Source of the DNA: Paraspadella gotoi
Lineage: Eukaryota; Animalia; Chaetognatha
Direction of reading: 5' to 3'
NCBI GenBank assembly: GCA_051294375.1
Contig: JBJCIZ010000957.1
Location: forward strand, 1 to 64,000
Length of the DNA stretch: 64,000 nt
Shown here: positions 5,139 through 61,870 of the stretch, one piece after another
Numbering within the stretch: position 1 is the first letter of the stretch
Layout: each line of letters opens with the position of its first letter
Notes under the pieces: model-generated
What the model saw: the letters and a program-made list of their open reading frames with translations, nothing else
Told to the model about the DNA's origin: nothing
The model's database searches: none
Position numbers and translations under genes: made by a program

Positions 5139-5169
<31 letters not shown>

Positions 5170-6326
5170 CCAAATTATGCTAATTGACCAAATTATGCCA
5201 GTTGACCAATTCTGCAAGTTAATCAAGTTTTGCAAGTTGACCAAATTATGCCTGTTGACCAATTAGGCTAGTTGATAAAATTATGCCAGTTAAACCAAAT
5301 TATGCCGGTTGACCAAAATTATCTTAATTGATCAAATTTATGTCAGTTGAACCAAATTATGTCAGTGACCAAATTATGTCAGTAGACCAATTATGTCAGT
5401 TAACCAAATTATGTCAGTTACCAAATTATGACAAATTAATGCAAGTTGATTAATTATGCAAGTTGACCAAGATAGCTTATTACCACTTAATTAATCGATT
5501 GACCTGGAATTTTGTATGTGAGTAGAAAAGTGTGTGATTGAACAGGAAACCAAGTTTCGATGGAATCTTTTGAGTGGAAATGAGTTTAAATGGAAAAACA
5601 AAAAACCTGTTTCACTAATTGATTATGCTTCTTTTTTCCTTTATATTAAATGTATATGCAGGATGTATTAATAAGTCAAATAATTAATCAGTTAATTAAA
5701 TCAATTGTCAATCATTAATTAATCAATAATTAATTAATCAGTCAATCAATCCGTCCATCCGTTCCCACCTTAGCAAAAAGCTCCAATAACTCGTGGATTG
5801 GCTGGTTGGATTGAAATGAAATTTTGTGTGTGGGTAGGAAAGTGTGTGAATAAAGCTGGATATAAAGTTTCGACGGAATCGTGTGAGTGGAAATGAGTTT
5901 AAGTGGAAAAAACATAAGTCGCATTTACTAAAATCTTTTTACTTTTTTTAACCAATAAAGTACTTACTAATTAAATCATAATTGGATGATAGATTTGAGT
6001 TCAAATTTTTGTGTGGGTGAAAAATGTGTATCGATGCTTGATATTAAAGTTTCGGGTGGAAACGTACGAGTGGAATGAGTTTAAATGAAAAAAAATATGA
6101 GTCACATTTACTTGAATCTTTTTACTTATTTTAACCCATAATAGATTGAGATGAAATTTTGTGAGCGGGTAGGAAAGTGTGTGAAAAAGCTAGATATAAA
6201 GTTTTGACGGAAATTGTGCCAGTGGAAATGAGTTTAAATGAAAAAAAAAAAAAAGTCACATTTACTTGAAGCAGAAAAATGATACAAGTTAAAAAAATCC
6301 TAAAAGCATAAGGATCGTCGCAATTG

Positions 6327-17973: not shown

Positions 17974-19067
17974 GTACGTATGTGCGTGGGTGAAAACTCG
18001 TCTGTCGATTTGCCGGTCCGAGTTCTGATTGGAAGGGCGGTTCTGACGTCCCTCTTTCGAAATTCGCTGAGTAAGTTGCAAGAAGCGTGAAAGGTTTGGA
18101 AGCAAAATCGTTGACAATGACGATGTAATCGATGTTATAGAGGGTAAGGCAGAAGCAGTAAAAGGAAACTTCGTTGAAGCGAGTTCTTACGCTACGACGC
18201 AAAGGTGAGGCCGAGACTTCGCTCTCGTATATATATTAGAGAGTAGTGAAAGTTATGTACAAAAATTTTAAAGTCAATTATGAACAACAAACCATCAGTG
18301 AACATTAATTGTATGAAATAATTTTATGTTTTTTAATTTTTTAAAATTTTTAAATCTATGCCCTTATAAAACCGTTTAAAAGAAAATATTATGGTCGCCA
18401 CAATATAAATGTTTTTAAAAATTCTTTCATTAAGTAGGTTAAAAATAAAAAAGCTATATTTAACATATTTAGAGAGTAATAATTGTTGAGTTAGTGACAG
18501 AACCGTTCAATACAGTGTGTCCCAATGGTACTGTCGGTTAACTTTTACATACTGTGCGGAGCTGTGTTATTAAATCTTATTTCTGAGATAACAATGTCAA
18601 AGATAAGTTCTTACCATTTATGATACATCGTCACAATTCTTCACCTTCTTCTTACTTTTATTATTACTATTTTTTGTCTTCTACTATACTATATTTTGAA
18701 TTCAATTTTTATCAATTTTTCTTTGATGAACATTCAATTTAAATGAGTCATAATTTCTTACCTTTTTAATTTTTAGCTAATTTTTTATTTTAAAATAAAA
18801 TTTATTAAAAAAATAAAATATAAAATATTTTAAATAGATGTAAATTATTTAAATTTAAATTTGTATGAAATAAATGCATTAATAAAAACAAATAAACAAA
18901 TATTAAAAAAATATAAAAATTGATAAAAATATACTAATTAATTTGATTTTTAAATTGTATTATTTGAAGTTGTGAGCGATTGAATCGTTAAGCCAGAACA
19001 AAATGGTTACTATTTATACAATAAATTATTATTAAATCAATTAAAAAAGTAATATAAACAAGGTAAG

Positions 19068-19296
19068 TAGTATGGTGGACTAAAATCCACCAACCGTTCA
19101 TCAGCAATTAGGCAATTAGTGCAAGAGGCAAGTCATTCGTCTCCCAACCCCAAAGCCCAGTGGCCGCCTAGCAGTTAAGAGGGACGGGGCGCTTAACCCG
19201 CCTGTAACATGGTGTTACAGCCTGATCCGAAGCTCAGGGATTGCTGATATTGAATGGTTCTGTCACTAACAAATAACAATTATCACTGTCTCTTCA
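19068..19296 (+). mobile_element. Solo LTR of the twister-LTR family
   Basis: Aligns end to end with 61635-61870, ends in CTCTTCA, approximate GTAG target duplication. Confidence 0.85.
19170..19245 (+). ncRNA. Twister ribozyme, P5-type permutation, core intact
   Basis: AGCAGT(P5) taaga GG(P2') GA CGG(T1) GGCGCT(P1) TAA CCC(P2) GC(T2) CTGTAAC-atggt-GTTACAG(P3) CCTGA(P4) T-CCG-AA-GC(L4) TCAGG(P4') g ATTGCT(P5). Predicted cut U19194/A19195. Confidence 0.75.
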
Positions 19297-20984
19297 GTAG
19301 ATAATTTTAAAAATAATTATTACTGTATTATAAAAGCTCTGGAGCTAAAAATAAAAGATTAAAAATTAAAGAAAAGATTGAAAACATTATTTTATAAATA
19401 TTAAAAAATATATAAATTAAGAATTTTTTTTAAAAAATTCACTAATTGCTTTCTACAGGAGTATCCTATAAAATGGTCCAGACTTGTACGAATAATCATT
19501 ATAATGAATTAAAGTTTCTCGATCTGGTATCGGAGTAGTAAGCTTATCTTAACAGACAGAACCATTGGGACACACTGTATAAGCAGTCCCTGAGCTTCGG
19601 ATCAGGCTGTAATAGCGTGTTAGAGGCGGGTTAATGAAAGAATTTTTAAAAAAGAGTTATGTTTCTTTATAATAGGGCTGTGCATCGTTCGAATCAAAGT
19701 TCCGATCAAGATTCATTTATATTTCACTTCTATTCAAAACTGCATAGTCAAGGCTCCAAAAAATTATATCAATATGGGCATATTTTGAAAGCTTGGCGTC
19801 TTGGGAAGCCAACGGAGGTAGAACGCGATCGAAATTCCCATTTTAACATGCCCAAAAATGGTATTTAAATTGACTGGTCAGGCCATTTTTTCCTTTTTAC
19901 CAAAAAGCCTGCTAGATCTTTTGTAAAATAGAACAAATCATACATATCAGTACGGTTTTGGATAGCTTATTGTCTTCTCTACAGAATAAAAAAAAGAAAA
20001 GTTTAAACTCTTGCAATCTTGAATGCTTGATAAAGCAATCAAATGAACTGGTTTTTTAGGTGAAAACTGCATAGTCAAGCCTTCATATTTTTTTTTGTTC
20101 TAAAACCATCGAAAGAAACTATATTGTTTTTACTATCTGTTTCAGGTAGAGCGCGGGGTTAAATTTTGTCTATTTATATTAAATTTCGTGCTAATAGAAA
20201 CAAAATTAGTTAAGCGCACGGTAATCCTTTTTTAAGCGCATTCCGGGGTGTGCCGAATAGTCGTCGAGACGTTGCTGATGACGTATTTGACTCTTAGAAA
20301 CCGATTGTTTACACTCGTCTCTAGGCAGATAGAAGTTTCACTTAGCCTGTTTTGATAAGAGAACGCGGAGCCGGCGGGGATGAAAATAAACAAAGTTGTA
20401 GTTGGTGATTCCGGTCAATGCTCACTTGCCTGATTAGTGAGTATTTAATGAAATGAACATTAAATTGATGATTTATTGAAATTACTTTACATTGTTAAGG
20501 TTTTGAACTCCACTACATTTACTTTCACAATACAATACTTGTACGTTCTAACACTGGCATTGTGACTTGAAAGACAGACATTTAAATTAGGTTCTCGAAA
20601 AATAGCCTATTTTACTTTATACGGGGCGTATTTAAAACTCTTGAAACAGGTTATCTAACAAGGACATCGCTCGAAAGAAAGGATTGATCATGCGCGATCC
20701 GGGCAAGATAAAAACGAAATTTAAACTTGGCTTTACGTTTTGCAACAGTTCCCAACGGTTGGCGGTCTGTTTTTAGTGGATATTCCTTGAGCCAGGGTTA
20801 AATTTTTCATTATCATACAATCATTATCATTTAATTATAATTTTAATAATATTAAATAAATAAATCATGGCATTTCCGGAGATTAATCGTTCTAGAGGTT
20901 TATGGAAAAATCTGTTTTTGCTGGATTTATAGTTAAATTTTAATAATATTGGACAAGGAAGAGCAAGTTAAAAAAATAGTATAC

Positions 20985-21620
20985 AAGTATGCATACTTTT
21001 TTCAAAGTATGCATTCTTTTTAAAAGTATTCATACTTTGAAAAAAGTATGCATACTTTTTTCCAACTTGCATACTTTTTAACAACTTGCATACTATTTTT
21101 TCCAAGTATGCATACTTTTTTCCAAGTGTGCATACTTTTTATAAAGTATGCATAATTTTTTTCAAGTTTGCATAATTTTTTCTAAGTATGCAAAATTGTT
21201 TCCAAGTATGCATACTTTTTTTAAAGTATGCAATTTTTTTATAGTATGCATACTTTTTTCAAAGTATGCATACTTTTTTCAAATTCCATACTTTTTCAAA
21301 TTGCATACTTTTTCAAATTGCATACTTTTTCAAATTGCATACTTTTTCAAATTGCATACTTTTTCAAATTGCATAATTTCTTCAAATTGCATAATTTCTT
21401 CAAATTATATACTTTTTTCAAATGACATATTTTTTTCAAATTGCATACCTCTTCAAATTGCATACTTTCCTCAAATTGCATACTTTTTCAAAATATGCAT
21501 ACTTTTTCAAATTGCATAGTTTTTTAAAATTGCATACTTTTTCAAATTGCATACTTTTTCAAATTGCATACCTCTTCAAATTGCATACTTTTTTCAAATT
21601 ACATATTTTTTTCAAATTGC
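20985..21620. repeat. ~18-bp minisatellite (CAAATTGCATACTTTTTT)n
   Basis: Dozens of tandem units; ends in a HINE 3' terminus abutting another tail to tail (21625-21700). Related arrays at 40620-41590 and 5170-5470. Confidence 0.9.
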
Positions 21621-21661
21621 TTAGTCAAACCCGATATTGTTTGCTCAATCTTGTTTATAAT

Positions 21662-34603: not shown

Positions 34604-36619
34604 ATGTCGGGAAACGAAAATAATGGGCAAAATTCGACACGATCAGGTGAAGCAATGAATAATAAGCAAGGCAATGGCGCTGATTCTCGCAAAATTAGTA
34701 ACAAAACCTTGGTGGCTCTGAAATTATTCAACTGAAGGGATCTTGGAAAAAAGTGAGTTGTTGGCGAACGAATTGAGCAACGTCACAGCCAATAAAGGAT
34801 TATCAAGTCCCCTTGCCCGAAATTTTGTTTGAACAGGCGACGCCGAATACAGCCAAAAGACTAAAACGTCAGCGGGATCAAGATTCGGTGAACCAGGGAA
34901 CAAGATCTAGCGAAGTCATACAGGAAAAAAATATGAGCACTCAAAAGGAGCCTACGAGAGGTAGGAGTACACGAAAAGCTGCTATTTTGGTAGGAAATAC
35001 ATTGCCGACGGACGTTCGAAATGCAGAAAAAGCCTGGTATCTATAGTGCAAAAAAGCATACCCAGAGAGTAAACTTAGAGGAATTGAAGTGACACAAAGA
35101 GGAGATTTGGTGCTTGTGGGAAGCACACCAAAAGACAATAATGTCTTGTTGTTAGTGGATCGATGGTCCGAAAAACGAATACAATTTTGTCCCAGACTCT
35201 CGGACGACAGCACCGCGGAACAAACCGTCACAATCCGCGGCATTGAACCGGACGTGGGAGAGGAAGAAATCGAAGGAGAACTTCGACAATCAAATTACAG
35301 CCCTCGTCAATTCAGAGAATACGCGTCGGCAAGAAAAGAACACCTACTTGGACAGTGAAAGTAACCTTGAGGCTGACAAGTGAAGAAGACCGTCTTAATA
35401 TGAAGGGTTCAAAATATATGTTTAAGAGATATAAGGTTAGAGAGTAACAAAAAGAATCCCCATTACTCAATGCTATAAATGCATGAAAATAGGACATATG
35501 AGCTTTGAATGCACGGCAGAGAAAGAAATATGTTCAAGGTGTGCAGGTGAACATCGAGTAAAGGATTGTATTGTTGAGGAAAAAAACCTCAAATGCGCAA
35601 ATTGTGGGGGCAACCACGCCGCAACCTTTCGTGGCTGCAGGTATATTCGAGAAAAGATGGTACATCTACGAAGGCATGGCGACCAAGACATTGCAAGGAC
35701 AAATGACTCAACAACTGTGACTAAAAACAATCGGAGCTATTCCAGTGTCGTCTCACAGTCAGATAAACCTAACAAAGACCATCTCAACGCCTGGATAATC
35801 CTAGAAGTGGTTCTTGAGATCCTGCAGGAAGCGGGGTTAGTAACTACACAAAACTCAACTGAGATTACGAGAAAAATCTGCCAGAGCTTACGGAAAAGAG
35901 GGAGACAGCCAAATGAGGCAGATATCAGAAAAGAAGCAGAATTATTAACAGCAAATGCGAGACAAAAGACCGGAGGCTCAATTAGAAATTATCTGACCAC
36001 AAGACCCTCACCCTCTCCAGCAGGCCCAAGACGTGCGTCGACATGTATTACACCTTCAACTCGACGAATGACGGGCAAAGCAATAGACGAAGGAAATGTC
36101 TTAACCCCAAGGACATCGTCAAAAGAGGTATCGGCGAGCTCAACATCAAATACAACCTTGCAGCGAGGTGAAGCCGCGCTTTGTACATTGAGAAATACAG
36201 CGGAAAGAGCAGATGGCCAAGTAGGTCAACAACAGCACAGCGAGGTTGAACTACAAGAAAATGCGGGAGCAAATCTTAATTCGAATCATGCTTCACAGTT
36301 AACGGAACCAACGTGGGACCAGCAGACTTATGGAAATGGAAACTGGAATCTGCTGATGCCAACATGGGGTGCGGCGAGGCCGGTCCCTGTACAGATGGAA
36401 GGACAACAATGCCCGGGTGGAACCACGAGGCAAACATTACTACCAGTACAGCAACCTGCTCAGACACAAGCACAATGGCCCTTCATCCAAGACACAATGA
36501 ACTATCAGTACCCAGTACAAACCCCACGCCTAGTATACACACAACCGCAACAGATACCAGTACAGAATCGCAACCAAGAGCCGAGAGGACAGTTTCAGAT
36601 CATTCAAAATGGCAACTAG
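34604..36619 (+). pseudogene. LINE ORF1 (gag-like zinc-knuckle protein)
   Basis: CYKCMKIGHMSFEC, CSRCAGEHRVKDC, CANCGGNHAATFRGC; TIRGI pre-knuckle region; Q/P-rich tail; stops and shifts in 5' half. Confidence 0.85.
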
Positions 36620-39475
36620 ATCTAAAATCTTCAGTATAGTACAGGTTAATGTAAATTCGATTGTACCAAGGAAAGATGAGCTAAATAATTTAATTGACAA
36701 ACTAAACAACAAAAAAATCACAAAGACTATACTCATGTTCAATGATACCAGACTCAAGCACGAAGACAAATATTCCATATCAGGGTATATAATAAAAAGG
36801 AGAGATCATAAATCAAACAGCAGGTCGGCAGGCGGGGTGGCAATCGCCCTACCATCGGACTTTAAGATTTTGGATTCAACATTGAGCAATGATAATGAAT
36901 CTGAATACATTATCATAAAAACCGAACACAAAAATACAGGCAGGCTTATCATAGCAACAACATATATACATCCCAATGAGAGAGTAAAGACGAGTTTTTT
37001 TGAGAATTTAAAGAAAATGCATAATGATCGACAAAGTACACCAACCATTATTATGGGAGATTTTAATGCAAAAGTAAGTTCATTGGAGGATCAGTCAAAC
37101 ACAAAAGGCAAAATACTAGCGAAACAACTAGAGGAATACAACTACACATGTGTCAACACACCGGATCCAACATACTACAGTTTTTTTAACAGCAGTAAGG
37201 CCTGCCTAGACCTGAGCTTTGTAAACCGGGAAGGTCTGAACAGAACCAAAAATTGGTCCACTCTTGAACCGATTATGAGCGATCACCTGCCCACAAAAGT
37301 TGACCTTCAAGAACTAAACTCCTGTGAGTCATGCAGACTCAAAAAAAAAAATAAGTTGGTCGAGATTTCGGGAAGAACTTGAAAAAGAAAAAACAAAATT
37401 AGAGGTCAATGAAAATATGAAGAACAATGAAATTGAAGATTGGTGTGGTAGATTTTCAGCATCTGTCAAGAATAGTTTTGAGAAATCTTGTAAGTCAAAA
37501 GTAGTAAAAACAAAAAATGGTATCGATCTTTCAAAGAAATCTCGAAGCACTGATCTCTTTAAAAAGAAAAATTCACAATTATCGAAGGAGAACTGACTGT
37601 GACGACAAATTAAGAATAATCTACAATCTAGTAAGTGGAGAAAGTCAAAAAATCTATTAAAGAAGATGTGAAGCAGTACTGGGCCACAAAAGTAGAAAAA
37701 ATGGCGCAGACGCAAGATGCCAATGTCAAGTGGGGAATCTACAAGAAAATTGCAAACTTAGATCAGGTGGAAGTGGAATTGCCACGCTGATTCGAGAAGA
37801 TGGAACAGAGGCAATTGGTGATAAGACAGAGCCGAGGTTCATGCAGAGAGGTTGAAATCCATCTACATCCCGACCTGGATCCGCTGTTCAGTAGTGAATG
37901 GGGAATCACAGTAGATAATTTTTGTGAAGAAAACAAAGAAAGGTTAACACCATTGGATTGCAATGAATTAAGGGAAGATCCGGAAGAGAGTGACTTCACA
38001 GAGGGGGAATTAGATATGGCCCTGAAGTGCTGCCAAAATAAATCAGCACCCGGCGAAGACGGAGTAACCTACCAAATGGTTAAAAATCTACCTGAGGGGG
38101 GCAAGCTCACACTACTGTTCGTGTACAACCTCTGTTGGAATCGCGGCTATTACCCAAAAGTATGGAAAGGGCAAAATTGATAACCCTTCCAAAAAAAGGG
38201 AAAGATTTATCTGGGGCAAAAAACCACAGACCAATCAGCCTTCTATCTTGCGTTGGTAAGATCTTTGAAAGACTTCTTAAACCAAGATTGACGAGAAGCC
38301 TAGATGCCCGCAACATGAGAAATAGTTTCAAAGTGGTTATAAGAAAAACCGAAGCCCACAGGACCATCTCTTTCGACTGACAGAGACAATTTATCAGGCA
38401 TTCAAGGCAAAAAAGTGTGTTGTCGGCCTTTTTTCTTGATGTAGAGCTGGCATTTGACCACCTTTGGTGGAACGGACTCCTGTATAAATGGATGAAGAAA
38501 AAACATGCACCGAGGATGCTAAGAATAGTAAGCCACTTTCTTACGGACCGAAGCATAATAGTCTATGAAAAAAATCAAAAATCCTCTGTGATACCTATCA
38601 GTGCAGGAACGCCACAGGGTGGAGTGATAAGCCCGGACATATTCAACTCACACACAGACGACATCTTTGATAGTCGAAGAAACAAAATCCATCTCAGTTT
38701 GCAGACGATCAGGCGGCTTGGGTAGTTGCGGATCATCCACTTGTGGCAAAAGTACAAATATGCAAAGTCATAAACCAACTGGAAAGTGGTGTAAAAAATG
38801 GAGACTCAAATTATCCCCAGCAAAAATCATATGTCATCTGTTTTAGCAGGCTGCAACGCCATCTTGACGTGGATATAAATATCAGCCTATTTGGTAGTAA
38901 AGTGAAAGTTGTCAGAGAAGTTACCTTCCTTGGCTTACAACTAGACCAAAAACTCCTGTGGAAGGAAAATATAAACTGCGTAATTAGCAAGGCCAATCAG
39001 AGATTAGGCATTCTGAGAAGAATTCATAACTAAATCCGAATTGTCGAACATTAGTGCATAATCTGGCTAACATCATGAACGGACTCTTTTCGAATATGGA
39101 GCATAGTGCTTTCTCCCAATGTCCGAAGTACACTGGGCCAAAATAAGAAAAATCCAAACACAATATCTCAGGCTTGCATACAACATACCAAAATACATAG
39201 CATCAGACAGGGTCCTGGACAGCACAGGTGAGAAATGCATTAAGTCACATCTAAAGGCATTTGCTTTGAGACGTCTGCTCGACATGTACAAAAAGGTGTC
39301 AATTGTAAAGGAACTGATAAGGGAACATGAGGACAGTTTGAGAACAAACACGACTTACAAGACAGTGCTAAGCTGTATAAACTGGATCCCCATCGAAGTT
39401 AAACCAAACTCCATACAGGAGCCTGTCTCTTCAATGCCAATATCGATATCCGGCACCATCGACACGCCAGTCTAA
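36609..39475 (+). pseudogene. LINE ORF2 (APE endonuclease + reverse transcriptase)
   Basis: QVNVN, GGVA, MGDFNA, LDL, SDHLP; SAPGEDG, HRPISLLSCVGKIFE, FLDVELAFD, GTPQGGVISP, QFADD (~38696), FLGL. No RNase H seen. Confidence 0.92.
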
Positions 39476-40619
39476 AGATCATCTAAAAAGACTGGCGGCC
39501 AACATCATCTCCAATTCTTGGGGAGCAAAAACTCGTTCTTTTGTAAACTAATAAATTAAAATTGATCGACAGTTATAACTCGTATATTCTTCTCCTTAGA
39601 AAAATATTCTTGTTTCGTGTCCCAAGAACCTTTTAATAAAGTTATTGACCGTGGTTGCGAGTTCATAAAACCTATATTTAGCCAATATGGTTAAATAATT
39701 TTAATATCTTTAGCTTCTGTTATTTAAATTTCGTTTTAAACTGAATAACACTTTCTATCCATTGTTTCGTACGATTAATTCAATAAACGTTGCTCATTGG
39801 TAGAAGTTGTAAAACTAAAAGAGTAGAAAAGGCAAGAAATTATGGACAAATAGTGATAGTAGTTTGGCGGTAAGACCCCGCCGGGGGCTCGCTTTTTTAA
39901 TGTATTGTCAAGTTAGGATACCCTAGTAATTTTTTTAAATACCCTAGTATTTTTTTTTAAATTACTTTGATACTTTTACAAATCGATAGATTTTAAGTAT
40001 AAAGTTAAGCGGTAAGACCCCGGGGGCGCGCACAAACTTTTATTTGGCGATAAGACCCCTAGGAGGGCCCGCAAAATAGGATCGCCCTAAGGGATGTTTC
40101 TCCTCATCCCGGGCGTTTTTAGTAATATCTTATCATCCTCATCATCTCTCTCTTTTTATGCAATTGCGACGATCTTTATGCTTTATCGGCTTTTAAGAAT
40201 TTTTTAACTTGCATCATTTTTTCACATGATTTAATTAATTAATTAATTAATTAAAAATTTATTAGTAATCATTAATATTAAGATTCAAGTAAATGTGACT
40301 TATGTTTTTTCCATCTAAACTCATTCCACTGGCACTATTCCGTCAAAACTTTATATAATTATTATATATTAATAAATATTTAAAAGTTTCAGTGCAAACA
40401 ACCCAATGAACTAAATTAATAAAGTTACATTGAAAATGCGATTTAGTAGTAAAAGGAAAAAAGAAATTTTTTGAGAGAATAGAAGTTATAAAAAGTGTTC
40501 AATTTGGCCCGCCTTACTAGATATTAGCGGAACAGGTTGAAAAAATCTAAAAAAGTATAGTGACTCGCCAACTCCTTACTATCAAAGAAAATTAATAAAA
40601 AGTATTAATAATTCTAATT

Positions 40620-41590
40620 TGCAAGTTGAAAAAAATTATAGCAAGTTAAAAAAAAGATTATGCAAGTTAATAAAATTAAATAAAATTGAAAAAAATTATG
40701 CAAAGTTTAAAAAATTATGCAAATTGAAAAAAAATTATGCAAGGTTAAAAAAATGCATTAACTATTCAATTGAAAAAATTATGCAAGTTGAAAAAATTAT
40801 GCAAGTTGAAAAAATTAGGCAAGTTGAAAAAATTATGCAAGTTGAAAAATTATGGCAAGTTAAAATATTATGCAAAGTTGAAAAAATTATGCAAGTTGAA
40901 AAAATTATGCAAGTTGAAAAAATTATGCAAGTTAAAAATAATGCAAGTTGAAAAATTATGCAAATTGAAAAATTATGGCAAGTTAAAAAATTTAAATTGA
41001 AAAATTATGGCAAGTTGAAAAATTAGCAAGTTGAAAATTATGCAAGTTAAAAAATATGCAATTTAAAAAATTATGCAAATTAAAAAATAATGCAATTAAG
41101 AAAAATTATACAAGTTGAAACATATTATGCAAGTTAAAAAATTATGCAAAGTTGAAAAAAATTATGCAAGTGAAAAAATTAGCAATTGAAAATTATGCAA
41201 GTTGAAAAAATTATGCAAGTTGAAAAAATTAATGCAAGTTGAAAAAATTATGCAAGTTGAAAATAATTATACAAGTTGAAAAAAATTATGGCAAGTTGAA
41301 AAATATGCAATTCAAAAAATTATGCAAATTAAAAAATATATGCAAGTTAAAAACAAGCAAGTTGAAAAAATTATGAAAGTAGAAAAAATTATGCAAGTTG
41401 AAAAAATTATGAAAGTTGAAACAATTATGCAAGTTAAAAAATAATGCAAGTTAATAGCAAGTTAAAAAAATTATGCAAGTTAAAAAAATTATGCAAGTTG
41501 AAAAATTATGCAATTTAAAAAATTATACAATTTAAAAAAATTAATGCAGTTAAAAAAAGTAAGCAAGTTGAAAAAAGTATGCAGGTTGGC
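40620..41590. repeat. ~18-bp minisatellite (AAAAAATTATGCAAGTTG)n
   Basis: About 1 kb tandem array; explains the MQVEKI/KKLCKL pseudo-ORFs. Confidence 0.92.
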
Positions 41591-50500: not shown

Positions 50501-51566
50501 CACTCTTTAGTCTTGAGTCTTCAGCCCACTTAACCTAACTCTAAGGTGCTAGGGCGTTATCCTTATACATTATTGCGTATTTGCGTCGACCTTACAAATT
50601 CCATTTTTTGGTTCCGTTTCTTGTTTTGTGTTGAGCTACATATTTGTTAATAACTATGTGAAAATCTTGGTTTAAAAAAAAATGGCGAAATGCTCTTCGT
50701 TGCCCCCTTGCCGTCTGACTGAGCAGCGATCGGGATCGACAAACACAACGATAATTTGAAAGAGGGATTAATTGTTTAGGGTTTTGGTTAGGGATAAGAT
50801 TAGTTTAGGGGATAGATATTAGGGTTAGGGACTAGGGTTAGGGATATAGGTTAGGGACTAGGGTTATCTTTCCCTACGTAACTTTTACAACAACAAAATT
50901 CTGGCTTGCTGGGTGACTCATCGACTCAACTTTTGATTAAATTTCAATCAAAAACGACTCTCTTTAAGTATGATTGAGAGAGTTTGGAGTCTGCAGCTGC
51001 TTGCGTTTAGATAATATTGTTATTATTGTTAGACATTGTTTAATTTTTCTCTCTTTTCGTTGTTCAATAAGATAGCAGATTCGAAAACGAAAGTTTTAGT
51101 ATTTTTACAACGATTTTTATTACAAAGTATTGGACATGTTTTGACTCTTGTTTTCGAGTCTTCATCAGCATTTGACAGTTTTATTTTTCACAATCATAAA
51201 GTTGGGGATAGAGAGAGTGAGAGAGAGAGAGAGAGAGAGATTCCAACAAAGAATTGAGAAAGGACAGTGGTCAGATTTCAGGACAGGTGAAGGCAAGGAC
51301 AGGAGAAAGGGGAAATAAGTTGATTTTGAAATGGTGACAAAGAGAGAGAGAGAGAAACATTACATTTTTTAAATGTACAACAAAGATAAATGAATCAGTA
51401 AACTAAATGAATAATAGTAACAAAGAAATAATAATAAATAGTTGATTTAACTAATGGAGTATAAGTGAAAGTGAAATTTGAAGAATAAGTGGTGAGGGAT
51501 AGGTAAGTAAAGATTTTAGAGAAAAATTAAGTTAAGAAAGAAGCTCAAATTGAGCAAAAACGGAAG

Positions 51567-54153
51567 TTGCACCAACTTCGACTGCGGCACGCCCAGCTCA
51601 CGCTCGAAATGGATAGGCGTCAGCGTCGACGCAATGAACTGTTTCAACTCTCCGATGACAAAATCCGCAGATCTCAAGAATGTTGGCTTGCCAACCATTC
51701 GTCCCACACCCTAACACAAGATGAAGATACAGTTTTACGTAAAGGTTTGTCTTTTGTTCCAACGCCTATTAATATTCCTGTTGTTGACCTCATCGTTGGC
51801 GTTGAGACGGGAGCCCGGCTCCTCGATCAACGGCCTGAAGTGGCGGCTACCCTTCGGGCAGGGGCGGCGCAAATACTCAGTGCTAAATGAGTTCCGCCGC
51901 CATCTAATGTCGGTAAGAGTGAACGCAAGGCCACTGCCTCACTCAAGCGCAATTGAGCAATCATGGTTCACCCCGCAGATAAGGGGCGAGCTGCGGTAGT
52001 CATGAACGCTCATGATTACAAGTCCAAAGTGCTAACAATGCTGGCAGACAAGGAAACATACAAGCCTTTGGCAAAGGATCCCACTCTCGCTTACAGAGTG
52101 AAGATCCAAACAGTAACAAGCAAAATTCGTGAATACTGCCCCGCGTCAGTTTTTCACAGTCAACCCTGACTCAACGCAGCCGCCACTTTTCTTTGGTCAG
52201 CCGAAGGTTCATAAGCTCGATCTACCGTTACACCCTATCGTATCGGCCCGCAATTCCATTTTTAATGGAATGACGAAGGAGTTGGGAAGAATTCTCACTC
52301 CTCTCGTCGGAAACCAACACCACATCAAAAATTCTCTTGATCTGACAGAAAAGCTGCAGCATATCAAAGTGCCCAATACTCATCTCTTGATCTCGTGCGA
52401 CCTTCAGAGCATGTTTACAAATATCCCTCAGGGACTGGCGTTGGCATCCGCAGAACGCCCCCTGAAGGGAGACCGGTGGTTGCACAAGCGTACGCCAATT
52501 CAATTGGATGATATCATGGCACTGCTGCGGTTGGAACTGGAACTGGCGTACTTCAGGTTCGATGGACGATACTATGCCCAGCCTGGTGGCTTAGGGATGG
52601 GCAAATCAACCTCGAGTCCTCTGGCAGATTTTTATATGGAGGACTATGAGGTGGAAGCTTTGGCTTCTTTTTGATCTCTGCATGGGGCAGAATCAGTTCT
52701 TTTCGGGTATCGGAAGGCAGACAATACAATCCTGGCCGTGAGAAGGGATCTCATCGAGACCCTACTGAACCATTTGAACAGCATTGAAGCGAGCATCAAG
52801 TGGACGTGCGAAAAGGAGACGAATGGTCAAATTCCAATGCTCGATGTTCTTATAAAGCGCAGAGAGGGCGGCTCATTGGAATTTTCAATATATCCCAAAC
52901 CGACCCACACTGACCAATATATTCCCTTCAATTCGCACGCTCCCTTGTCGCACAAGCTTGCCACGGTCATGTCCCTGACCAGGAGAGCTCGACTGATTCC
53001 GTCGACCCCCGAGCTCCAGGCCGCTGAGCTTGAGCATGTCAAAAGAGCCTTGGCGCTCAATGGTTACCCTCTGTGGGCATTCGAGAAGGCTAGGTTTCGG
53101 CTAAACCAAGCTGAGGGCAGTGGCCACCAAGGGGCTGCCCAAGTAACTGCTGACGCAAGCTCAACCTCTGCCCCCCAGGAGGAAGAGCGATGCCTTGCTG
53201 CTGAAGGACCAACAGCGCCCACCACAGCGCAACCGGGAGATGAGCAGAAGCGTCTCAAGACCGTAGGTCATTTGTCCCTCCCCTACCACCAGGGGATCAA
53301 TGAAGCTTTGGTGCGGGTGCTAGCAAAGCAGGGGATCTCCACTTCAGTGACGACCCGCGGCTCTTTACATGAGCAATTGGTGAAACCGAAAGACAAAATC
53401 CCCAGACCGAAAACATCAGGAGCCGTCTATTGGGCGGCCTGTGCAGGGGCGAGCAACCAAGCCTGCACAGCAGCATATGTGGGTGAGACAGGGAAGTCTT
53501 TATCAGATCGGTTCCAACAGCACAAGAAGCCGTATAAAGACAGTCGAGGCCACTACCTGTCGGCCATAGCAGAACATTCGGCCAATATGGGCCATCTGTT
53601 TAGAGAAACTGACTGTCTCATGCTGTCCCATGACCAAAACTGGTTCTCAAGTGGTATTAGAGAGGCAATTTACATCAAAGCCCTCGAGCCCTCTCTGAAC
53701 CGTGATGGAGGACGAGTCAAGCTCCCTCCGAGCTATGATTCGCTCATCAAGTTGGTGGTGGAACACCCTACACCACTCCAACCGCACGGTGATTCCCCTG
53801 TCCCCAACGGGTCAGGCGGAGGCCTCTCAGCAGGCAATGGACGTCAGCAACTTGGTGTGATCCTTCTCACACTGAGCATCGACCAAAACGACGGCTGCAG
53901 GAGGAAGGAGAGGAGTCTGTATCACCTGCATCCAAGCAGGCAAGAACAGGCAGGTGAGAGGAGGGCAGTCGGTAGGCTTATCAGGCCAAAGAGATATTTG
54001 AGTGGCACTCGGCATCTTCCCAAGTGGATCACTACCCGATCCCAGGGTGTCAAACTCTACAAAAATATCTTCTCAGCCTATGACAGGTCAATGACCCGAT
54101 CACATCGTCAACGTCCCCTATTTGCCTGGCCGGGGGGGGCCAGCTCAATTTGA
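51567..54153 (+). pseudogene. PLE RT + GIY-YIG endonuclease ORF (three in-frame TGA, one frameshift near 52140)
   Basis: LRKGLSF.PTP, PADKG, PKVHK..PL.PIVS, SCDLQSMFTNIP, GLGMGKSTS, RKADNT, KPTHTDQY, GAVYWAAC..C..YVGETG, SAIAEH, REAIYI, LNRDGG. Confidence 0.93.
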
Positions 54154-54513
54154 GCTTCTTTCTTCTTAATTTTTCTCTAAAAGCTTTACTTACCTATCCC
54201 TCACACTTATTCTTCAAATTTCACTTTCACTTATACTCCATTAGTTAAATCAACTATTATTTATTATCATTTGTTATTATTCATTTAGTTTACTGATTCA
54301 TTTATCTTTGTTGTACATTTCAAAATGTAATGTTTCTCTCCTCTCTCTCTCTCCTCTCTTTTCACCATTTCCAAAATCAACTTATTTCCCCTTTCTCCTG
54401 TCCTTGCGTTCACCTGTCCTGAAATCTGACCACTGTCCTTTCTCAAATTTTGTTGGAATCTCTCTCACTCTCTCTATCCCCAACTTTATGATTGTGAAAA
54501 ATAAAACTGTTAA

Positions 54514-54556
54514 AAGCTGATGAAGACTCGAAAACAAGAGTCGAAACATGTCCAAT
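54514..54556 (+). ncRNA. Minimal hammerhead ribozyme in pLTR; mirror copy 51130-51172 has GAAA changed to AAAA
   Basis: CTGATGA-a-GACTC gaaaacaa GAGTC-GAAA-catGTC; stem I weak. Confidence 0.75.
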
Positions 54557-57245
54557 ACTTTGTAATAAAAATCGTTGTAAAAATACTAAAACTTTCGTTT
54601 TCGAAACAGCTATTATTATTGTTATATTATTATCATTGTTATATTATTATCATTATTATTATTATTATTATTATTTTATTAATATAATATTATTATTATT
54701 ATTATTATTATTATTATCGTCAGCGGAAATGAGTCTCCGCCTCCATTCGATCCCTCTCTCTCTTGCGGAGAACAAGCGATCGAATGAATGAGAAGACGAG
54801 AAGTGGGACTAGGGCAAAGGGAGAGACGAGGATCATGGGCCGTGGGCTGTGAGAAGGAAAAGACTTTAGTTTGCAATTTGCCCTCGGCCCGAATGGTTTG
54901 AAATATATTCTAACTCTGTGAATTGAATTATCTTGCCTTGTACATAAGACACAATGAAAAATTTTGCGTACGTGTACTAGGTTTCCGTGGCATAAAAAAA
55001 ATTCACTGTTCAATATTATTATATTCTTTTTATTTTTTGAAACGTTATAGTTTCATATGTTGATATCCAAAATATCAATGCAAAATCTTTTTTTGTTTTT
55101 TAGATATGACTGAATATAGGGTGAAAGATGATAAATTTTTTTAAAAAGTTACTTATTCATATTTATTCATAGAATTGTAATAAAAAAAATAAAAAAAATA
55201 ATAGTACTAATAGTTAGTGTTATGTCTCAAATAGATGGAAAAAAAACCTCATTTAAAAATTCGATCGGGAAGTGGGGTAACTAAGGGCATCCTCCACGCC
55301 GATTGTTCTCACAAATAATTTTTTTATTTAATACATTTGAAAGGGAAAAAAAGAAAATTTGGAATGCAGGTTGCAGAAAGGGTACAGATAATCTGGACTT
55401 TTTGACATGATAACCATGACCTTTTATATCTTGTGAAATGGGGGCAGTAAAGAAATCTAAAAAATTTCATCATTAAGTCAGTCAATGAACCCTTTCCAAT
55501 GGGCTATTACGAGAAATATTTTTTCTTAATTAAAATGGATGATAAATAATAAAATTAAATTCCTTGCTATATTTAAAAAAAATTATCAATACAATTTAAC
55601 ACAATGATGTTGCTTTGTCAAATATGTTACCAGCTATATAATTTTTTACAACTTTATTATGATAAACAAGCAGTTTGTCAAGCTTTAGTTTGCAGCTAAA
55701 GATAATGAAAAATGACAATTTTTTTTTCACAGACAAGAAGGTAGATGTCCAGACTGTTTATATCAAGCTGAAAACATTTTTGTATTTATCATTTTTAATA
55801 TTTAAAAATACATTTTATCAAGCTACAACATAAATTTTTGCTTGTTTTTTACTTTAACTGAAAAATATAAGCAATTTTATGGAATAAAAAAAATTTAATA
55901 ATAAAAAATGTAATTAAGTCTTTCCTTTTTCAAATTACAAAAGAAAAAGAAAAAATTTCATATGCCTTCATCGAAATTTTTAAAGCAAAAAACTGTTATA
56001 CTTTTAACTCTGATTTAAACAAAAGCTGTGTAAAGATTTATGAATTTAATTTAATAAAACTCTTTTAGAAAGGTGTCCCATGATTAGGGCTTTAATTTGA
56101 TACCACATCCACCTTGCTACCTCTTTTCTTTAAAAAAGTTATTTAAAAAAATAAACTTTTTTTAAATTACGCAGTACAAATATTTGTTAAATAAAAATTT
56201 CGGTAAAGCGGGAGTATCTCACTTATTTCTATTGGTACAATACTTAAATTTCAAAATAAAACTTGAAGAAATTTTTTTTGTCATTTAGAGACATATCACT
56301 TTCAGATGTACCCATCGTATAATAATTTATTTATTTATTTCCCCCAAAAAAGCCTAATTAGAAAAGTTAAAATTTTTTCAAATTGTTGGAAAAAAAATTT
56401 TGTCCGACCTATGCTCATTGAGAATAATGGTTTTGCATAGAAAATCAAAATATCAAAAAAAGATCAGCCTCTAGAAAAATTGAAAGGCTAGAGGCCGATT
56501 TTTTTAGAATTGCAAAAATTTTTTACTGACTCATAATCCATTATTCTCAAGTTTCAAAATATTTTTTTCCAAAATCATTCAATCAATTTTTTTTTTATTA
56601 ATTTAAAATGTTTTTATGATGTTGTTTTTGTTTGAAAGAATTGAAAAAAAGTGAAAAATATAGTAATTATATAAGGTTTTTGAAAATACCTTTAAAATAT
56701 TAAATAATTAGACACAAGGGGAGTAAGCAGAGAAAACTTCCCATTCATAAAGAAAATTGAAAATGAATTTGCCATATTGTTATTTAGATTAATTAACTAT
56801 TTACAAACAAATGATTCATATAAATTGAGGAAATGATGGGTAAAAAATATTCATCTTGGTCTCGGTTAACTATTAAGTTATCGTTAAAGTTTTGTTTTAA
56901 TAATATTAATATTTTTTTTGCATTTATAAAAGCAATGGTCCAAAATTTTGTAAGCGTTTCGAGCTATATTGCTTCATCTTTTTTACTATTTTTGATCTAG
57001 TTAGATTTTTTGTTGATGGTCAAGGGTTATGGTCAGATACAGTAATGTCCAGTAGTGTATATCGCACATATTACCAAAAGTAATGATCAATTAATTTGGC
57101 TCAGAAACAATTTTAAAGGGATAAAATCAGCACGAGACCGTTTCGCCACGTTATTTTTCATTGTGTCCATAAGTAAATAAACTCGATTTGTGTTACAATT
57201 TAATTCGTGATTAAATAGTCAATCAAAAGTCACTAAATTGTAAAG

Positions 57246-60200
57246 TGGTGTCAACGACAAGATTCAAAAAACGAAAATAACCACGCAAATCAAACCGAAG
57301 AGACAGAAAAGATGGAGAAAACAATAAACGCGTTATTTTTCTCTTGCGAACTCGAACGCCGCTACCGGATTAACTCACAAAAATAAAAGTAAAAAGGCAA
57401 AAGAAAAGAAAAAGAAAACCATTCGGGCCCTCTCACCTGCCAAGTGAAAAGTCCTCCGACATCTTGCAAGGCATGGTGGGCGCCTATCTCGATAGGCGCA
57501 CAGGCCAGGTCATCTACCTCGATGGTAGGACCAAACCCGTGGACAAACTGACCGCAGGACTAGACAAGATCAAATTCTTCGATGACGACGAAGGCGCCGC
57601 CGACGGCACTGCCGGCGAGGTGGCGGGAAACAACAGGAAACCGCACCTCCTTGATCTGGACAAAAACTTACGCCGAATCGCCAAAGGCAAAAAAGGCAAC
57701 ATGGGAGCCGCGTCACCAAAATGCTGGCCCTAATAATCGACAACAGGGTGGAATACCGCCGCGCCCAAGTCCTGCCAGGTGGCCACCGAAACGAGGGCCC
57801 TCGCACTTAAGATGGCCAACCTCGCCCAAGCAGTCGAGAAACTCACCACGACGCCCAGGGAAGAGGGACTGGACGCCTACTCGCCTGAACCCCGGCGTAG
57901 AAGCATCTCCGCCAGGGGAGGCGCCAGCCAGCCACCCGAACCCTCAAGTTCAGCCAACCCGACTTCATGGACGCCAGTGAAGATGGATAGACGCCGAAAA
58001 GGAGAAAAGCCGAAAGAGTTCCTGCGCGGCATCTACAGAAACCTGAAAAACTGTAGCTTTGATGAACAAAGAGTGAATGAGCAGCTACAGGCTGTCCTCG
58101 CCCTCGACAAGGGGGCAAACTGGTACGTCGACCCCATAGAAGGCAGTCTGTGGAAAGGACTAGAATCCATGTGCAAGGAGACATCCATCACAGCGGCAGA
58201 GATAGCCGAGAAGATCGTAGTGAAAGTGGACCTAAAGGAACACTCTGAGTTCGGACTGCATCTAGTCAACTCAATCTACAAAAAGTTTGATTGCGTCGCT
58301 CTAGAGGAACGCGACACAGTCTCGCGCCATGTGGCACGCCTACTAACCAGAACACTGGACCCTTACACTCCCGGGATATCCAGAGAAGTGTTGAAGTTCC
58401 GCAAGCTCATCGACACCGACAACCGCCGTGAGTTGGGCAAAGAAATAGAGTGGATACTGTGAGGCTGGCTGGAAATGTACGGTTACAAAGCCAATGGAAC
58501 CGCTCGCCACTTCATAAATTCCATAAAGGACAACGACCGTCAAATCCTCATGGATTCACTTCTGCAGAAAGGCCTCAATGACAAAAACCCGGCCGAAAGC
58601 GCAAACGCCCTATACCAGAGAACAATGGTGCAGGAAGCAAATAACACCCACGAGCTCATGAAAAAGCTCACTAAAAGCATGACGGTGATCCAAAAGGTCG
58701 TCGAGACCAAGAAAGACGACAGCAAGTGGAAAAACCGCCAGTCGCGGGATCAAGACACCCCAAATGGCGCGAAGGAAGGGATGACAGGCGCTTGCAGGGC
58801 AGAACCCGCGCTCGCCGCCGCAGGATGAAGCAACAGGATCGAAACCAATCGTCGGCAAAGCGAGGCTCAGAACGTTCGTAGAGTTTAGTAGAGTAAAATC
58901 GAGAAGGATGATTTACAACCCAACTTCTACAGTCATCGGCACGAACCAGGGAGAATCTCTCCACCTGGAAACAATCAGAAGGGTCGAATGCCTGTCACGA
59001 GCCCGAGACGCTCGCTCTACCCGCTCCCAAAGAGGAATCAAGAAGAGATGAACAAAAGCCACCGCGCTTACTCGACTCGCCGCCAAAGGCAGCCCGTCCA
59101 AAGGACAAAACAAGTGGCCCGGAGCCAATAGATGATACAGGTAAGGGCTTTAGACACACCGGAAATAATTACATCCTGGCCGTTATAAACGGAGCCCCAG
59201 CCAGTTGTCTTCATGACACCAGCGCCTCAATAAACAAATAAAATATACCTCGGTGCCCCGCTGCGGGTAACAACGTGAAACGGCCCAATAACTATAAGAG
59301 AAAGGCTAAACCTGAGGGTTATGTTCCAAAATTGGATCCTAGACACAGTGTTCTTTGTCTCGCCTGATGCCGAAGATAGAGATGTAATCTTAGGCACCCC
59401 GACAAACAACCCCGGTCCTAGTGAGGAAATGTGGGTGGTAACCCCGAACGACAGAGACGGAACCCAAGTGGCACACATAAACGGCAAACCGATTACCCAC
59501 CTCTTTAAAAACAAGCAGGCTGCCCTTAGAGCCACCAGGTGGCTAACCAGGCAGTATGTGGACAAGAGGACGGAAATTCCCCTATACGCGGAAAAAATGA
59601 GCACTACAGGAACCAAGGTCAGGGCCGCCCAGACCTATGGGAAATCCCTGGCCAACTCCAAATGGCTGATGGAATCAACCGATGGAAAAACAGCTGTGAC
59701 GGTGACGGGGAACGACCTAAGAGAAGGAGTGAGCCTCCCCGGGTCACCCGGCACTTGGGGATCTGCCAAAGTGATCATTGCTGAAAACGCGGCGAGAGAA
59801 ATGGGCCTAAAGCCCCACTGCGCCGGCAGACCAGTCGACGCCGACTTCAGCGGAGCGGAACATCGCTTACAAAATGCACGTAAGTCAGTCATCCCTCCAA
59901 CAACAATAATAAGGCACGAACCCTCAGAGGAGATAGAGGCGGCAGAAAATGCCTGATGCAGACGAAGGCTAAAACACGATGATAGAGGACGCAAAGCCTT
60001 CCTGAAACCATTTAGGGAGATGGACCCCTCCCTCAGCAAGAAAGCAGAGGAAGTGCTAAATGTTGTTTGGGAATTCAGAGACGTTTTCGGTGAGTTAATA
60101 AACGACTGCAAGGAAGACTTTCTAAATTACAAGGTCGACCTATGCTTCACAACGAGCGACCTACCCAAGCCGAGATTCATAAACCAGGGCCCAGTAAAGA

Positions 60201-60460
60201 AAGCGGCCCTCAAAAGATACCTGGAAGTGTACGAGAAAGCAGGCGTCGTGTCCAGAACGACAGGCGAAGAGTTTTCAAATGCGTTCCTGATAAAAAAGCC
60301 AAACCACGTCAAGGACGGGCAAAATGTAATGGACGACGAAACCTTTGCCAAACAGTGCGCCTTACTTGCAACCTCTCGGCAGTAAACAAGAATATCTTGA
60401 CCTTCGCCACCGAACCCCAAACAATCACCTCCATTCTCGAGCAATACAAACCTCATGAGT
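57246..60460 (+). mobile_element. Degenerate LTR retrotransposon fragment (gypsy-like): PBS, gag-like, protease, start of RT; 3' truncated
   Basis: PBS-like TGGTGTCAACGACAAGATT at 57246; GC-rich broken ORFs 57473-59100; INGAPASCLHDTSASIN (D-T-G-type protease site) ~59185-59235, DVILG; FSNAFLIKKP...RLTCNLSAVNK ~60270-60390. Confidence 0.75.
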
Positions 60461-61393: not shown

Positions 61394-61870
61394 TGCTTAT
61401 ATTGAACGGTTCTGTCATTAACACTTATCAATAATTACTGTCTCTTCATTGGTGAGCCCGATTTCCGAACACAACAGCAACAACAACACTTTCAGGCGAC
61501 ATGCCTCAACCTGGCGATGCACTTTCCGCCCACAACACATCAGGCGACATGCCTCAACTTGGTGACGAACTTTCCACCAACAACAACAATTCACTAAAGA
61601 GACGCAACAGACTTCTCCCTACGGGAGGGGGGGATGTATGGTGGACTAAAATCCACCAATCGTTCATCAGCGGCCATTGGTGCTGGAGGCAAGACATTCC
61701 CCTCCCAACCCAAAGGTCCGGGGTTCTAGCCCGGTGGTCGTCTGGCAGTTAAGAGGGACGGGGCGCTTTACCCGCCTGTAACACGGTGTTACAGCCTGAT
61801 CCGAAGCTCAGGGACTGCTTATATTGAACGGTTCTGTCATTAACACTTATCAATAATTACTGTCTCTTCA
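61394..61870 (+). mobile_element. Miniature non-coding LTR element (TRIM/retrozyme-like): truncated 5' LTR 61394-61448, 186-nt internal region, 3' LTR 61635-61870
   Basis: 55-bp identical LTR ends, PBS TGGTGAGCCCGA at 61450, PPT GGGAGGGGGGGA 61623-61634, TG...CA LTR. Confidence 0.9.
61745..61818 (+). ncRNA. Twister ribozyme, P5-type permutation (UAA read as UUA in this copy)
   Basis: GCAGT taaga GG GA CGG GGCGCT TTA CCC GC CTGTAAAC-like stem CTGTAAC/GTTACAG, CCTGA TCCG AA GC TCAGG g ACTGC. Confidence 0.7.

Follow-up and report, generated by a model that had tools for sequence, protein, structure and literature searches.

LTR retrozymes have been described from plants, where they carry hammerheads, and published accounts of plant retrozyme RNA report that the ribozyme is blocked in the predicted fold (PMC4918200, PMC7761336). 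The metazoan retrozymes are described in a 2020 review as having no LTR, PBS or PPT (PMC7761336), and the minimal hammerheads in the pseudo-LTRs of Penelope elements are reported to cleave as dimers (Lunse et al. 2017, via PMC6765202 and PMC7761336). The canonical twister has, according to one review, four Watson-Crick pairs in P2 and a near-invariant G-C pair atop P4, and the same review states that twisters without P1 cleave at nearly the wild-type rate (PMC5408937). When natural twisters were assayed on a large scale, imperfections in P1 or P2 were reported not to lower cleavage (PMC11662667), and Liu et al. (2021, PMC8501958) term the cleavage of P1-less twisters inefficient. Searches of the open-access literature turned up neither a twister inside an LTR element nor an LTR retrozyme from an animal, and no twister dimer occurring in nature.

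The locus considered here is a real twister-like motif within an LTR mini-retrotransposon that has the anatomy of a plant LTR retrozyme, with the twister-like motif in the position of the hammerhead. In the window, the whole 64-kb stretch of DNA that was analysed, the motif lies in an LTR of 226 bp (19071-19296, plus strand) which starts with TA, ends with CA and is 82.5% identical to 61636-61870. This copy had been taken for a solo LTR, and the GTAG found at both 19067-70 and 19297-300, a 4-bp target duplication with a chance of about 0.002 at a fixed place (a single case), bears this out. Its boundary was set from the 5' loose ends of the family, which peak at the matching place, 61637, with 137 and 138 contigs of runs X1 and X2 among the rows listed and 36 and 33 one base outward. 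The LTR seemingly starts at TA, two bases past the TG that follows the PPT (19071, 61637), which is a non-canonical terminus; some family copies end in TA instead of CA at 61868-61870, and a GC-rich hairpin stands at the very beginning of the LTR (19073-19092). The two-LTR form, with the order LTR, PBS, 188 bp, PPT and LTR, is found on the plus strand at 61394-61870. Its 5' LTR is truncated to the last 55 bp (61394-61448), which are 100% identical to 61816-61870, and is followed by a non-coding internal region of 188 bp (61449-61636) with a PBS-like TGG at 61450, a 46-nt direct repeat at 61492-61585 and a PPT at 61624-61634, and then by a 3' LTR of 234 bp (61637-61870). The latter contains a second twister-like copy (61744-61819) that is altered at the general-acid position, 61769, where 99% of the family depth differs from this copy; such a change was reported to abolish cleavage in five out of five natural twister cases. 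The LTR end was joined to 61449 in 7, 8, 2 and 1 contigs of runs X1, X2, X9 and X10 respectively, and joints running from LTR end to LTR start (61870 to 61637), with unread letters between, occurred in three contigs of X1 and four of X2, and would represent tandem LTRs or nested insertions. The longest ORF around the 422-nt circle has 84 codons, and the 64-kb window holds no tRNA gene to match the TGG-start site at 61450, the PBS of LTR retrozymes being one for tRNA-Met. As many as 16,369 and 12,392 contigs of X1 and X2 aligned to the unit, a tally of contigs and not a copy number that nevertheless indicates a large family. The element is a high-copy, non-coding, TRIM-like LTR mini-retrotransposon in what is likely to be an animal genome.

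The surroundings of the solo LTR have a layered history. A third, older LTR copy is present on the minus strand (19578-19634), truncated at its 5' end and continued at 18512-18471 beyond a DNA-transposon-like insert. The insert, a 1,065-bp element at 18513-19577 that has terminal inverted repeats of 32 nt and is flanked by TA on either side, is by inference a Tc1/mariner-type MITE; it splits the older copy, and the solo LTR inserted into the same element later. A perfect 22-bp inverted repeat (18412-18433 and 19631-19652) surrounds the whole nest. The 5' junction of the older copy falls within an overlap of four nucleotides, TTAA, across the cut site; this is a single case, and microhomology is a possible explanation. 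More generally, the window is AT-rich and repeat-rich, with microsatellites and arrays of a related 17-20-bp unit at 5166-5430, 20973-21625 and 40616-41589. It includes a LINE (35047-39475) that is frameshifted and has zinc knuckle, endonuclease and RT domains, and the remains of a Penelope-like ORF (51531-54153) with HTH_animal and GIY-YIG clusters, whose nearest protein clusters are eukaryotic and, among the few members with a record, mostly arthropod; on these grounds the host is taken as likely to be an animal. Inverted arms of about 490 bp (51065-51555 and 54143-54621) flank this ORF, and no hammerhead pattern was found in the Penelope-like region and its arms. The remains of a larger LTR-type element occupy 57240-60460, with a TGG start near 57247 and broken gag- and pol-like ORFs; its primer-site sequence differs from that of the TRIM, and it has no Pfam or PDB match.

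The motif itself is of the type-P5 twister kind and extends over 19170-19245 on the plus strand. The pairs of P5, P2, P3, P4, T1 and T2 were traced individually, and this pair-by-pair reading found both pseudoknots and both catalytic bases. Every element named in the original prediction is present, and its twister call is sound. P5 (19170-75 with 19240-45) has six pairs including one G-U, and the compatible variation claimed for it is confirmed by ATTGC at 19240-44 against ACTGC at 61814-18, with a further pairing-compatible difference between A at 19170 and G at 61744. P2 (19181-82 with 19197-98) had been put at two to three pairs and consists of two G-C pairs followed by A.C, compared with the canonical four and with three in each of two comparison loci, L010 and L102. 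The general-base G, the conserved A and the T1 3' strand CGG follow one another at 19183-19187, in the order and with the letters of L010, a type-P5 twister scored by Rfam, G19183 and A19184 being the conserved GA of twisters. T1 (19185-87 with 19227-29) is made up of three Watson-Crick pairs, C-G, G-C and G-C, between CGG and CCG. In the place of P1 there is only the linker GGCGCT (19188-19193), and direct reading agrees with its earlier description as six nucleotides between T1 and the UAA that are self-complementary with G-U ends; as a self-duplex it would form 6 bp at -8.3 kcal/mol. No intramolecular P1 hairpin is present at 19188-93, and in the nested model its closure costs 3.9 kcal/mol. 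The chance of a palindrome in the linker is 2.4% for a 6-mer at core composition, and 3 of the 221 6-mers in the LTR are of this kind. The UAA at 19194-19196 follows the twister consensus, with the predicted cut between U19194 and A19195, the latter being the general acid, and no variant reaches 1% there in X1 or X5. T2 (19200-01 with 19232-33) joins the conserved GC to the GC of L4, P3 (19202-09 with 19213-20) has 8 bp, and P4 (19221-25 with 19234-38) has 5 bp and closes the 8-nt loop L4, UCCGAAGC (19226-19233), which supplies the partners of T1 and T2 and is identical to the L4 of L010. The pair beneath L4 is A19225-U19234, and the near-invariant G-C of twisters is therefore absent. Neither this departure nor the altered general acid at 61769 was mentioned in the original prediction. 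A rival hairpin in which CGGG pairs with CCCG (19185-19200) would trap T1 and P2/T2, displaying GCGC in an 8-nt loop.

Starting from the observed anatomy (LTR, target duplication, PBS-like start, PPT and non-coding middle), catalytic letters and pairs, we infer cleavage, transcription through both motifs, circles and a helper, and the reading that we prefer, with a confidence somewhat short of even, is a retrozyme cycle in which the monomer is attenuated and swapping assists cleavage. An RNA spanning the two LTRs would be severed between U and A in both motifs, releasing a 422-nt unit (234 + 188). P5 and P2 would hold the ends of this unit so that they could be ligated into a circle, and the circle would then be reverse-transcribed from the primer site by a putative helper LTR element. 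A lone copy would lie mostly in the blocking hairpin at 19185-19200, so that the monomer, the solo LTR and the finished circle would be cut slowly, and two LTRs on one transcript would swap halves, with the palindrome providing a P1 of 3 to 6 bp, easier folding and a faster cut. Swapping is read as an accelerator and not a requirement because P1 is dispensable for twister chemistry; on the folding model, pairing of two copies would probably help the cut, and a requirement for it is unlikely. In favour of the preferred reading are the older copy that begins in the cut-site overlap, and the fact that T1 and the top pair of P4 depart from the Rfam consensus on both strands yet pair, which suggests past selection on the fold. 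Against it are counted the failure to identify a helper, the short P2, the A-U pair under L4 and the want of an Rfam hit at E 10. Depending on R, a normal LTR transcript may contain only one copy of the motif.

Neither the 64-kb window nor the two loci taken separately gave an Rfam twister match, whether at the gathering threshold or at E 10, and the miss is likely to have arisen because the RF02684 model calls for a P1 of 8 bp and has no long P3. Two probes, one a sequence pattern and the other a structural descriptor, were composed after the motif was seen, with the Rfam twister consensus for their fixed bases; each matched once in the window and not at all in 100 dinucleotide shuffles. Scans with patterns yielded 7, 5, 73, 85, 15 and 9 viral loci, 17 from metagenomes and 13 from prokaryote genomes, and of these 224 prokaryotic and phage loci the first 200 were structurally filtered and the last 24 inspected by eye; nine of the 200 passed, representing six distinct motifs, and BLAST revealed no copy of the LTR family among the first 24. 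The metagenome locus L010, retrieved by the motif-derived pattern, scores 48.1 bits as an Rfam Twister-P5 (cut-off 37.6), and its sharing of GA-CGG, UAA-CCC-GC and the L4 letters with 19170-19245 counts for the preferred reading. Judged by its sequence, the motif would work like a twister, and we do not assign it to RF02684. The 224 pattern-matched loci yielded no verified twister that stands alone and has a linker of 10 nt or less, so that there is no natural control for the monomer/dimer question. One candidate, L138/L197, resembled a twister standing alone with a 6-nt linker that is not palindromic, which would have weighed against the dimer idea. It was rejected because it had no Rfam hit and because a phage ORF has its ribosome-binding site and start codon there; L028 likewise had no Rfam hit. 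Three phage loci (L088, L108 and L213) were rejected as independent palindromes, their 6-nt linker being the junction of two tandem type-P1 motifs. These twister-like motifs (L213:131-230, and also L088 and L108) lie head-to-tail 48 nt apart and score 37-42 bits, below the cut-off of 67.2, and such tandem phage twisters with a self-complementary 6-nt junction offer a natural route toward a zero-loop P1. A Twister-P5-like motif of 25.3 bits on the minus strand of a 178-kb phage contig (L013:5997-6051; also L040) has its T1 strand caught in an 8-bp hairpin and is possibly a switched or dead ribozyme.

Variation across the family was followed by variant depth in assembled contigs, which is a rough and unphased measure. 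Changes at 1% or more were seen at 15 places in X1 and X5. The P3 loop position 19210 is variant in 54% and 33% of the depth in X1 and X5, the closing pair of that loop (19209) in 12% and 4%, and the other 13 places show C>T or G>A changes at 1-8% in X1; among the variant rows listed, the three common core variants (12-54% of X1 depth) are all at the P5 end or in the P3 loop. At every catalytic and pseudoknot position the family majority retains the base, in X1 and X5 as well as in the variant rows listed elsewhere, 40 of 100. The CpGs of T1 and T2 are changed at 1.3-7.6% in X1. In the palindrome variation is confined to the CpG: C19190T (5.3% and 0.39%) retains G-U pairing, and G19191A, which breaks the palindrome, makes up 2.0% and 0.06% of the depth in two runs. 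Common palindrome-breaking changes would have spoken against the strand swap; they were not seen, and frequencies that equal the CpG background give this result no power. Nor was any compensatory change or covariation seen in the palindrome, only CpG-type changes at background rate, such as the neutral decay of a young family would give. In T1, G19229A reached 6.1% and 2.2% in one contig mapping, and 13%, 11% and 4% among the variant rows listed in another; it mostly exceeds its partner change C19185T, so T1-mismatched copies exist, which counts against the preferred reading. In X5, C19185T and G19229A alone among C>T and G>A changes reach 1%, but they were not counted as a compensatory T1 pair, since the data are unphased and the shares differ between runs. 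No diverged relatives were found, runs X11, X12 and X10 aligning 0, 1 and 2 contigs. The solo LTR and the 3' LTR differ at 4 of 76 core positions without gaps, and at 20 of 145 flank positions with a further 18 gap positions (Fisher p=0.07), and three of the four core differences are structure-neutral, a comparison that counts for the preferred reading. Had many copies begun at the cut site, a peak of loose ends would be expected there; the rows listed show none (12 of 181 rows and 18 of 657 rows), and this counts against the preferred reading.

The folding energies come from a nested model that excludes pseudoknots and Mg2+, with five comparators. CGGG is able to pair with CCCG because the linker is so short, and the rival hairpin at 19185-19200 has a pair probability of 0.99 in both the 76-mer and the circular unit, and of 0.42-0.44 in the whole solo LTR. 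In the circular unit P5 reaches 0.98 and the motif is predicted to be blocked; for the complete solo LTR no P5 is predicted. With T1 and T2 left open, the best fold lies 7.7 kcal/mol above the monomer minimum, compared with 2.4 and 3.2 kcal/mol in two Rfam-scored type-P5 twisters and 2.9, 6.6 and 24.1 kcal/mol in three sub-threshold motifs. These values have to be set against a monomer that is fully competent, in which six bases would bridge T1 to the cut site, either unpaired or perhaps with one G-U pair and a 4-nt loop, folding in Mg2+ would beat the rival hairpin and the palindrome would be the relic of a shrunken P1. The stacking of T1 and T2 is about the same size as the deficit, a P1-less twister is said to be nearly as fast as the wild type (PMC5408937), imperfections in P1, P2 and P4 are reportedly tolerated (PMC11662667), and a plant retrozyme transcript with a single LTR in a reporter was reported to self-cleave (PMC9695139). 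The near-complete occupancy of the rival hairpin, the missing P5 in the solo LTR and the lack of any verified short-linker twister among the 224 loci argue the other way, and we regard a fully competent monomer as somewhat unlikely.

The original prediction went further in the opposite direction. It took P1 to be necessary for a twister, and two of the sources contradict this (PMC5408937, PMC11662667), with a third calling P1-less cleavage inefficient (PMC8501958); on the folding model the blocking hairpin, which it had overlooked, is a better reason for the dimer idea than the missing P1. The possibility that P1 forms by strand swap is sound, and the dimer idea is supported in part: the palindrome could provide the duplex of -8.3 kcal/mol, and the gap per core in the strand-swapped form is 1.9 kcal/mol at 1 M, 4.0 at 1 mM, 5.4 at 10 uM and 6.8 at 0.1 uM, so that the deficit of 7.7 would fall to 4.0-5.4, but inactive dimers are more stable. 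They reach -58.9 and -64.6 kcal/mol, as against -49.7 for the active swapped nested fold, which counts against the preferred reading also; the inactive palindrome-paired dimer is 4.6 kcal/mol per core below the active one, and the lowest-energy dimer exchanges P3 and not the palindrome. The most far-reaching version, in which the twister would count LTRs, appears unlikely: a lone copy would be locked in the hairpin, only a two-LTR transcript would swap halves and cut both sites, the ends would be held for ligation, a one-copy circle would be unable to recut, and the element would be the first animal LTR retrozyme. An obligate strand-swapped dimer, whose core would combine the 5' part of one copy with the 3' part of another through the 6-bp palindrome, leaving solo LTRs and the circle silent, seems to us rather unlikely. 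A zero-loop palindrome stands exactly where P1 should be, at a chance of 2.4%, and its inner pairs are impossible in the monomer; the monomer deficit exceeds that of the two Rfam-scored controls and is reduced by the swap; the GCGC displayed in the loop of the blocking hairpin could nucleate pairing; no common palindrome-breaking variant was seen; and the Penelope hammerheads set a precedent (PMC6765202). Against this, P1 is dispensable in twisters (PMC5408937, PMC11662667), deletion of the loop from a longer P1 hairpin would yield such a palindrome with no selection for dimers, the pairing probability of the palindrome in the free two-molecule ensemble is only 0.0002, no compensatory palindrome change was seen, and the hatchet ribozyme is reported to dimerise by a palindrome and to cleave as a monomer (PMC7357161). 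Least probable of all is a non-cleaving passenger, a degenerate twister in an ordinary TRIM LTR with normal LTR replication, whose palindrome may serve genome dimerisation for packaging in the way that six-base GC-rich loop palindromes are reported to initiate retroviral RNA dimers, as the absent Rfam score, the shortened P2, the A-U pair under L4, the T1-mismatched copies and a core conservation of only p=0.07 might suggest, but the catalytic and pseudoknot bases are all kept in the family majority while the flanks carry indels, and T1 and P4, by departing from consensus on both strands and still pairing, suggest that the fold was once under selection.

If the preferred retrozyme cycle with swap-assisted cleavage is true, the retrozyme strategy evolved a second time, using a different ribozyme in a different host. 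The motif would then be a 76-nt test case for the control of a twister by two-copy pairing, as in hammerheads, and for how ribozyme-bearing circles escape self-cutting. Host transcripts could be cut by the high-copy solo LTRs, whose ribozyme is possibly active, and if the monomer were fully competent these LTRs would cut any transcript that reads through them. With the Rfam type-P5 twisters (RF02684) the motif shares the strand order, UAA, GA, T1, T2 and L4, with core letters as in L010, and it differs from them in having no P1 hairpin, a 2-bp P2, an A-U pair under L4, a long P3 and a P5, and in being unscored. Stem III of the hammerhead is part of the core junction. The minimal hammerheads of the Penelope pseudo-LTRs (PMC6765202) are similar in that a palindrome replaces a stem and in that they lie in a terminal repeat occurring in pairs, but they belong to another ribozyme class, and here the element is a true LTR element and the P1 of the twister is dispensable. 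The twister T-variants of Perere-3 resemble the present case as poor-P1 twisters in an animal retroelement, but are described as type-P1, as lying one each at the 5' end of a non-LTR element and as having P1 completed by the insertion site (PMC8501958). The closest likeness in anatomy is to the plant LTR retrozymes (Cervera, Urbina and de la Pena 2016, PMC4918200; PMC7761336), which according to these accounts have a 4-bp target duplication, two motif-bearing LTRs, a PBS, a PPT, a non-coding middle, many solo LTRs and a unit whose predicted fold blocks the ribozyme. The plant elements carry a type III hammerhead (PMC4918200), whereas neither Rfam nor pattern searches found a hammerhead in the LTRs of the window, which have the twister-like motif instead. 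They are also larger, with LTRs of about 350 bp and units of 600-1000 nt (PMC4918200, PMC7761336) as against 234 bp and 422 nt, and they live in plant hosts, whereas the host here is animal-like and the unit-length circular RNA, abundant in LTR retrozymes, is predicted.
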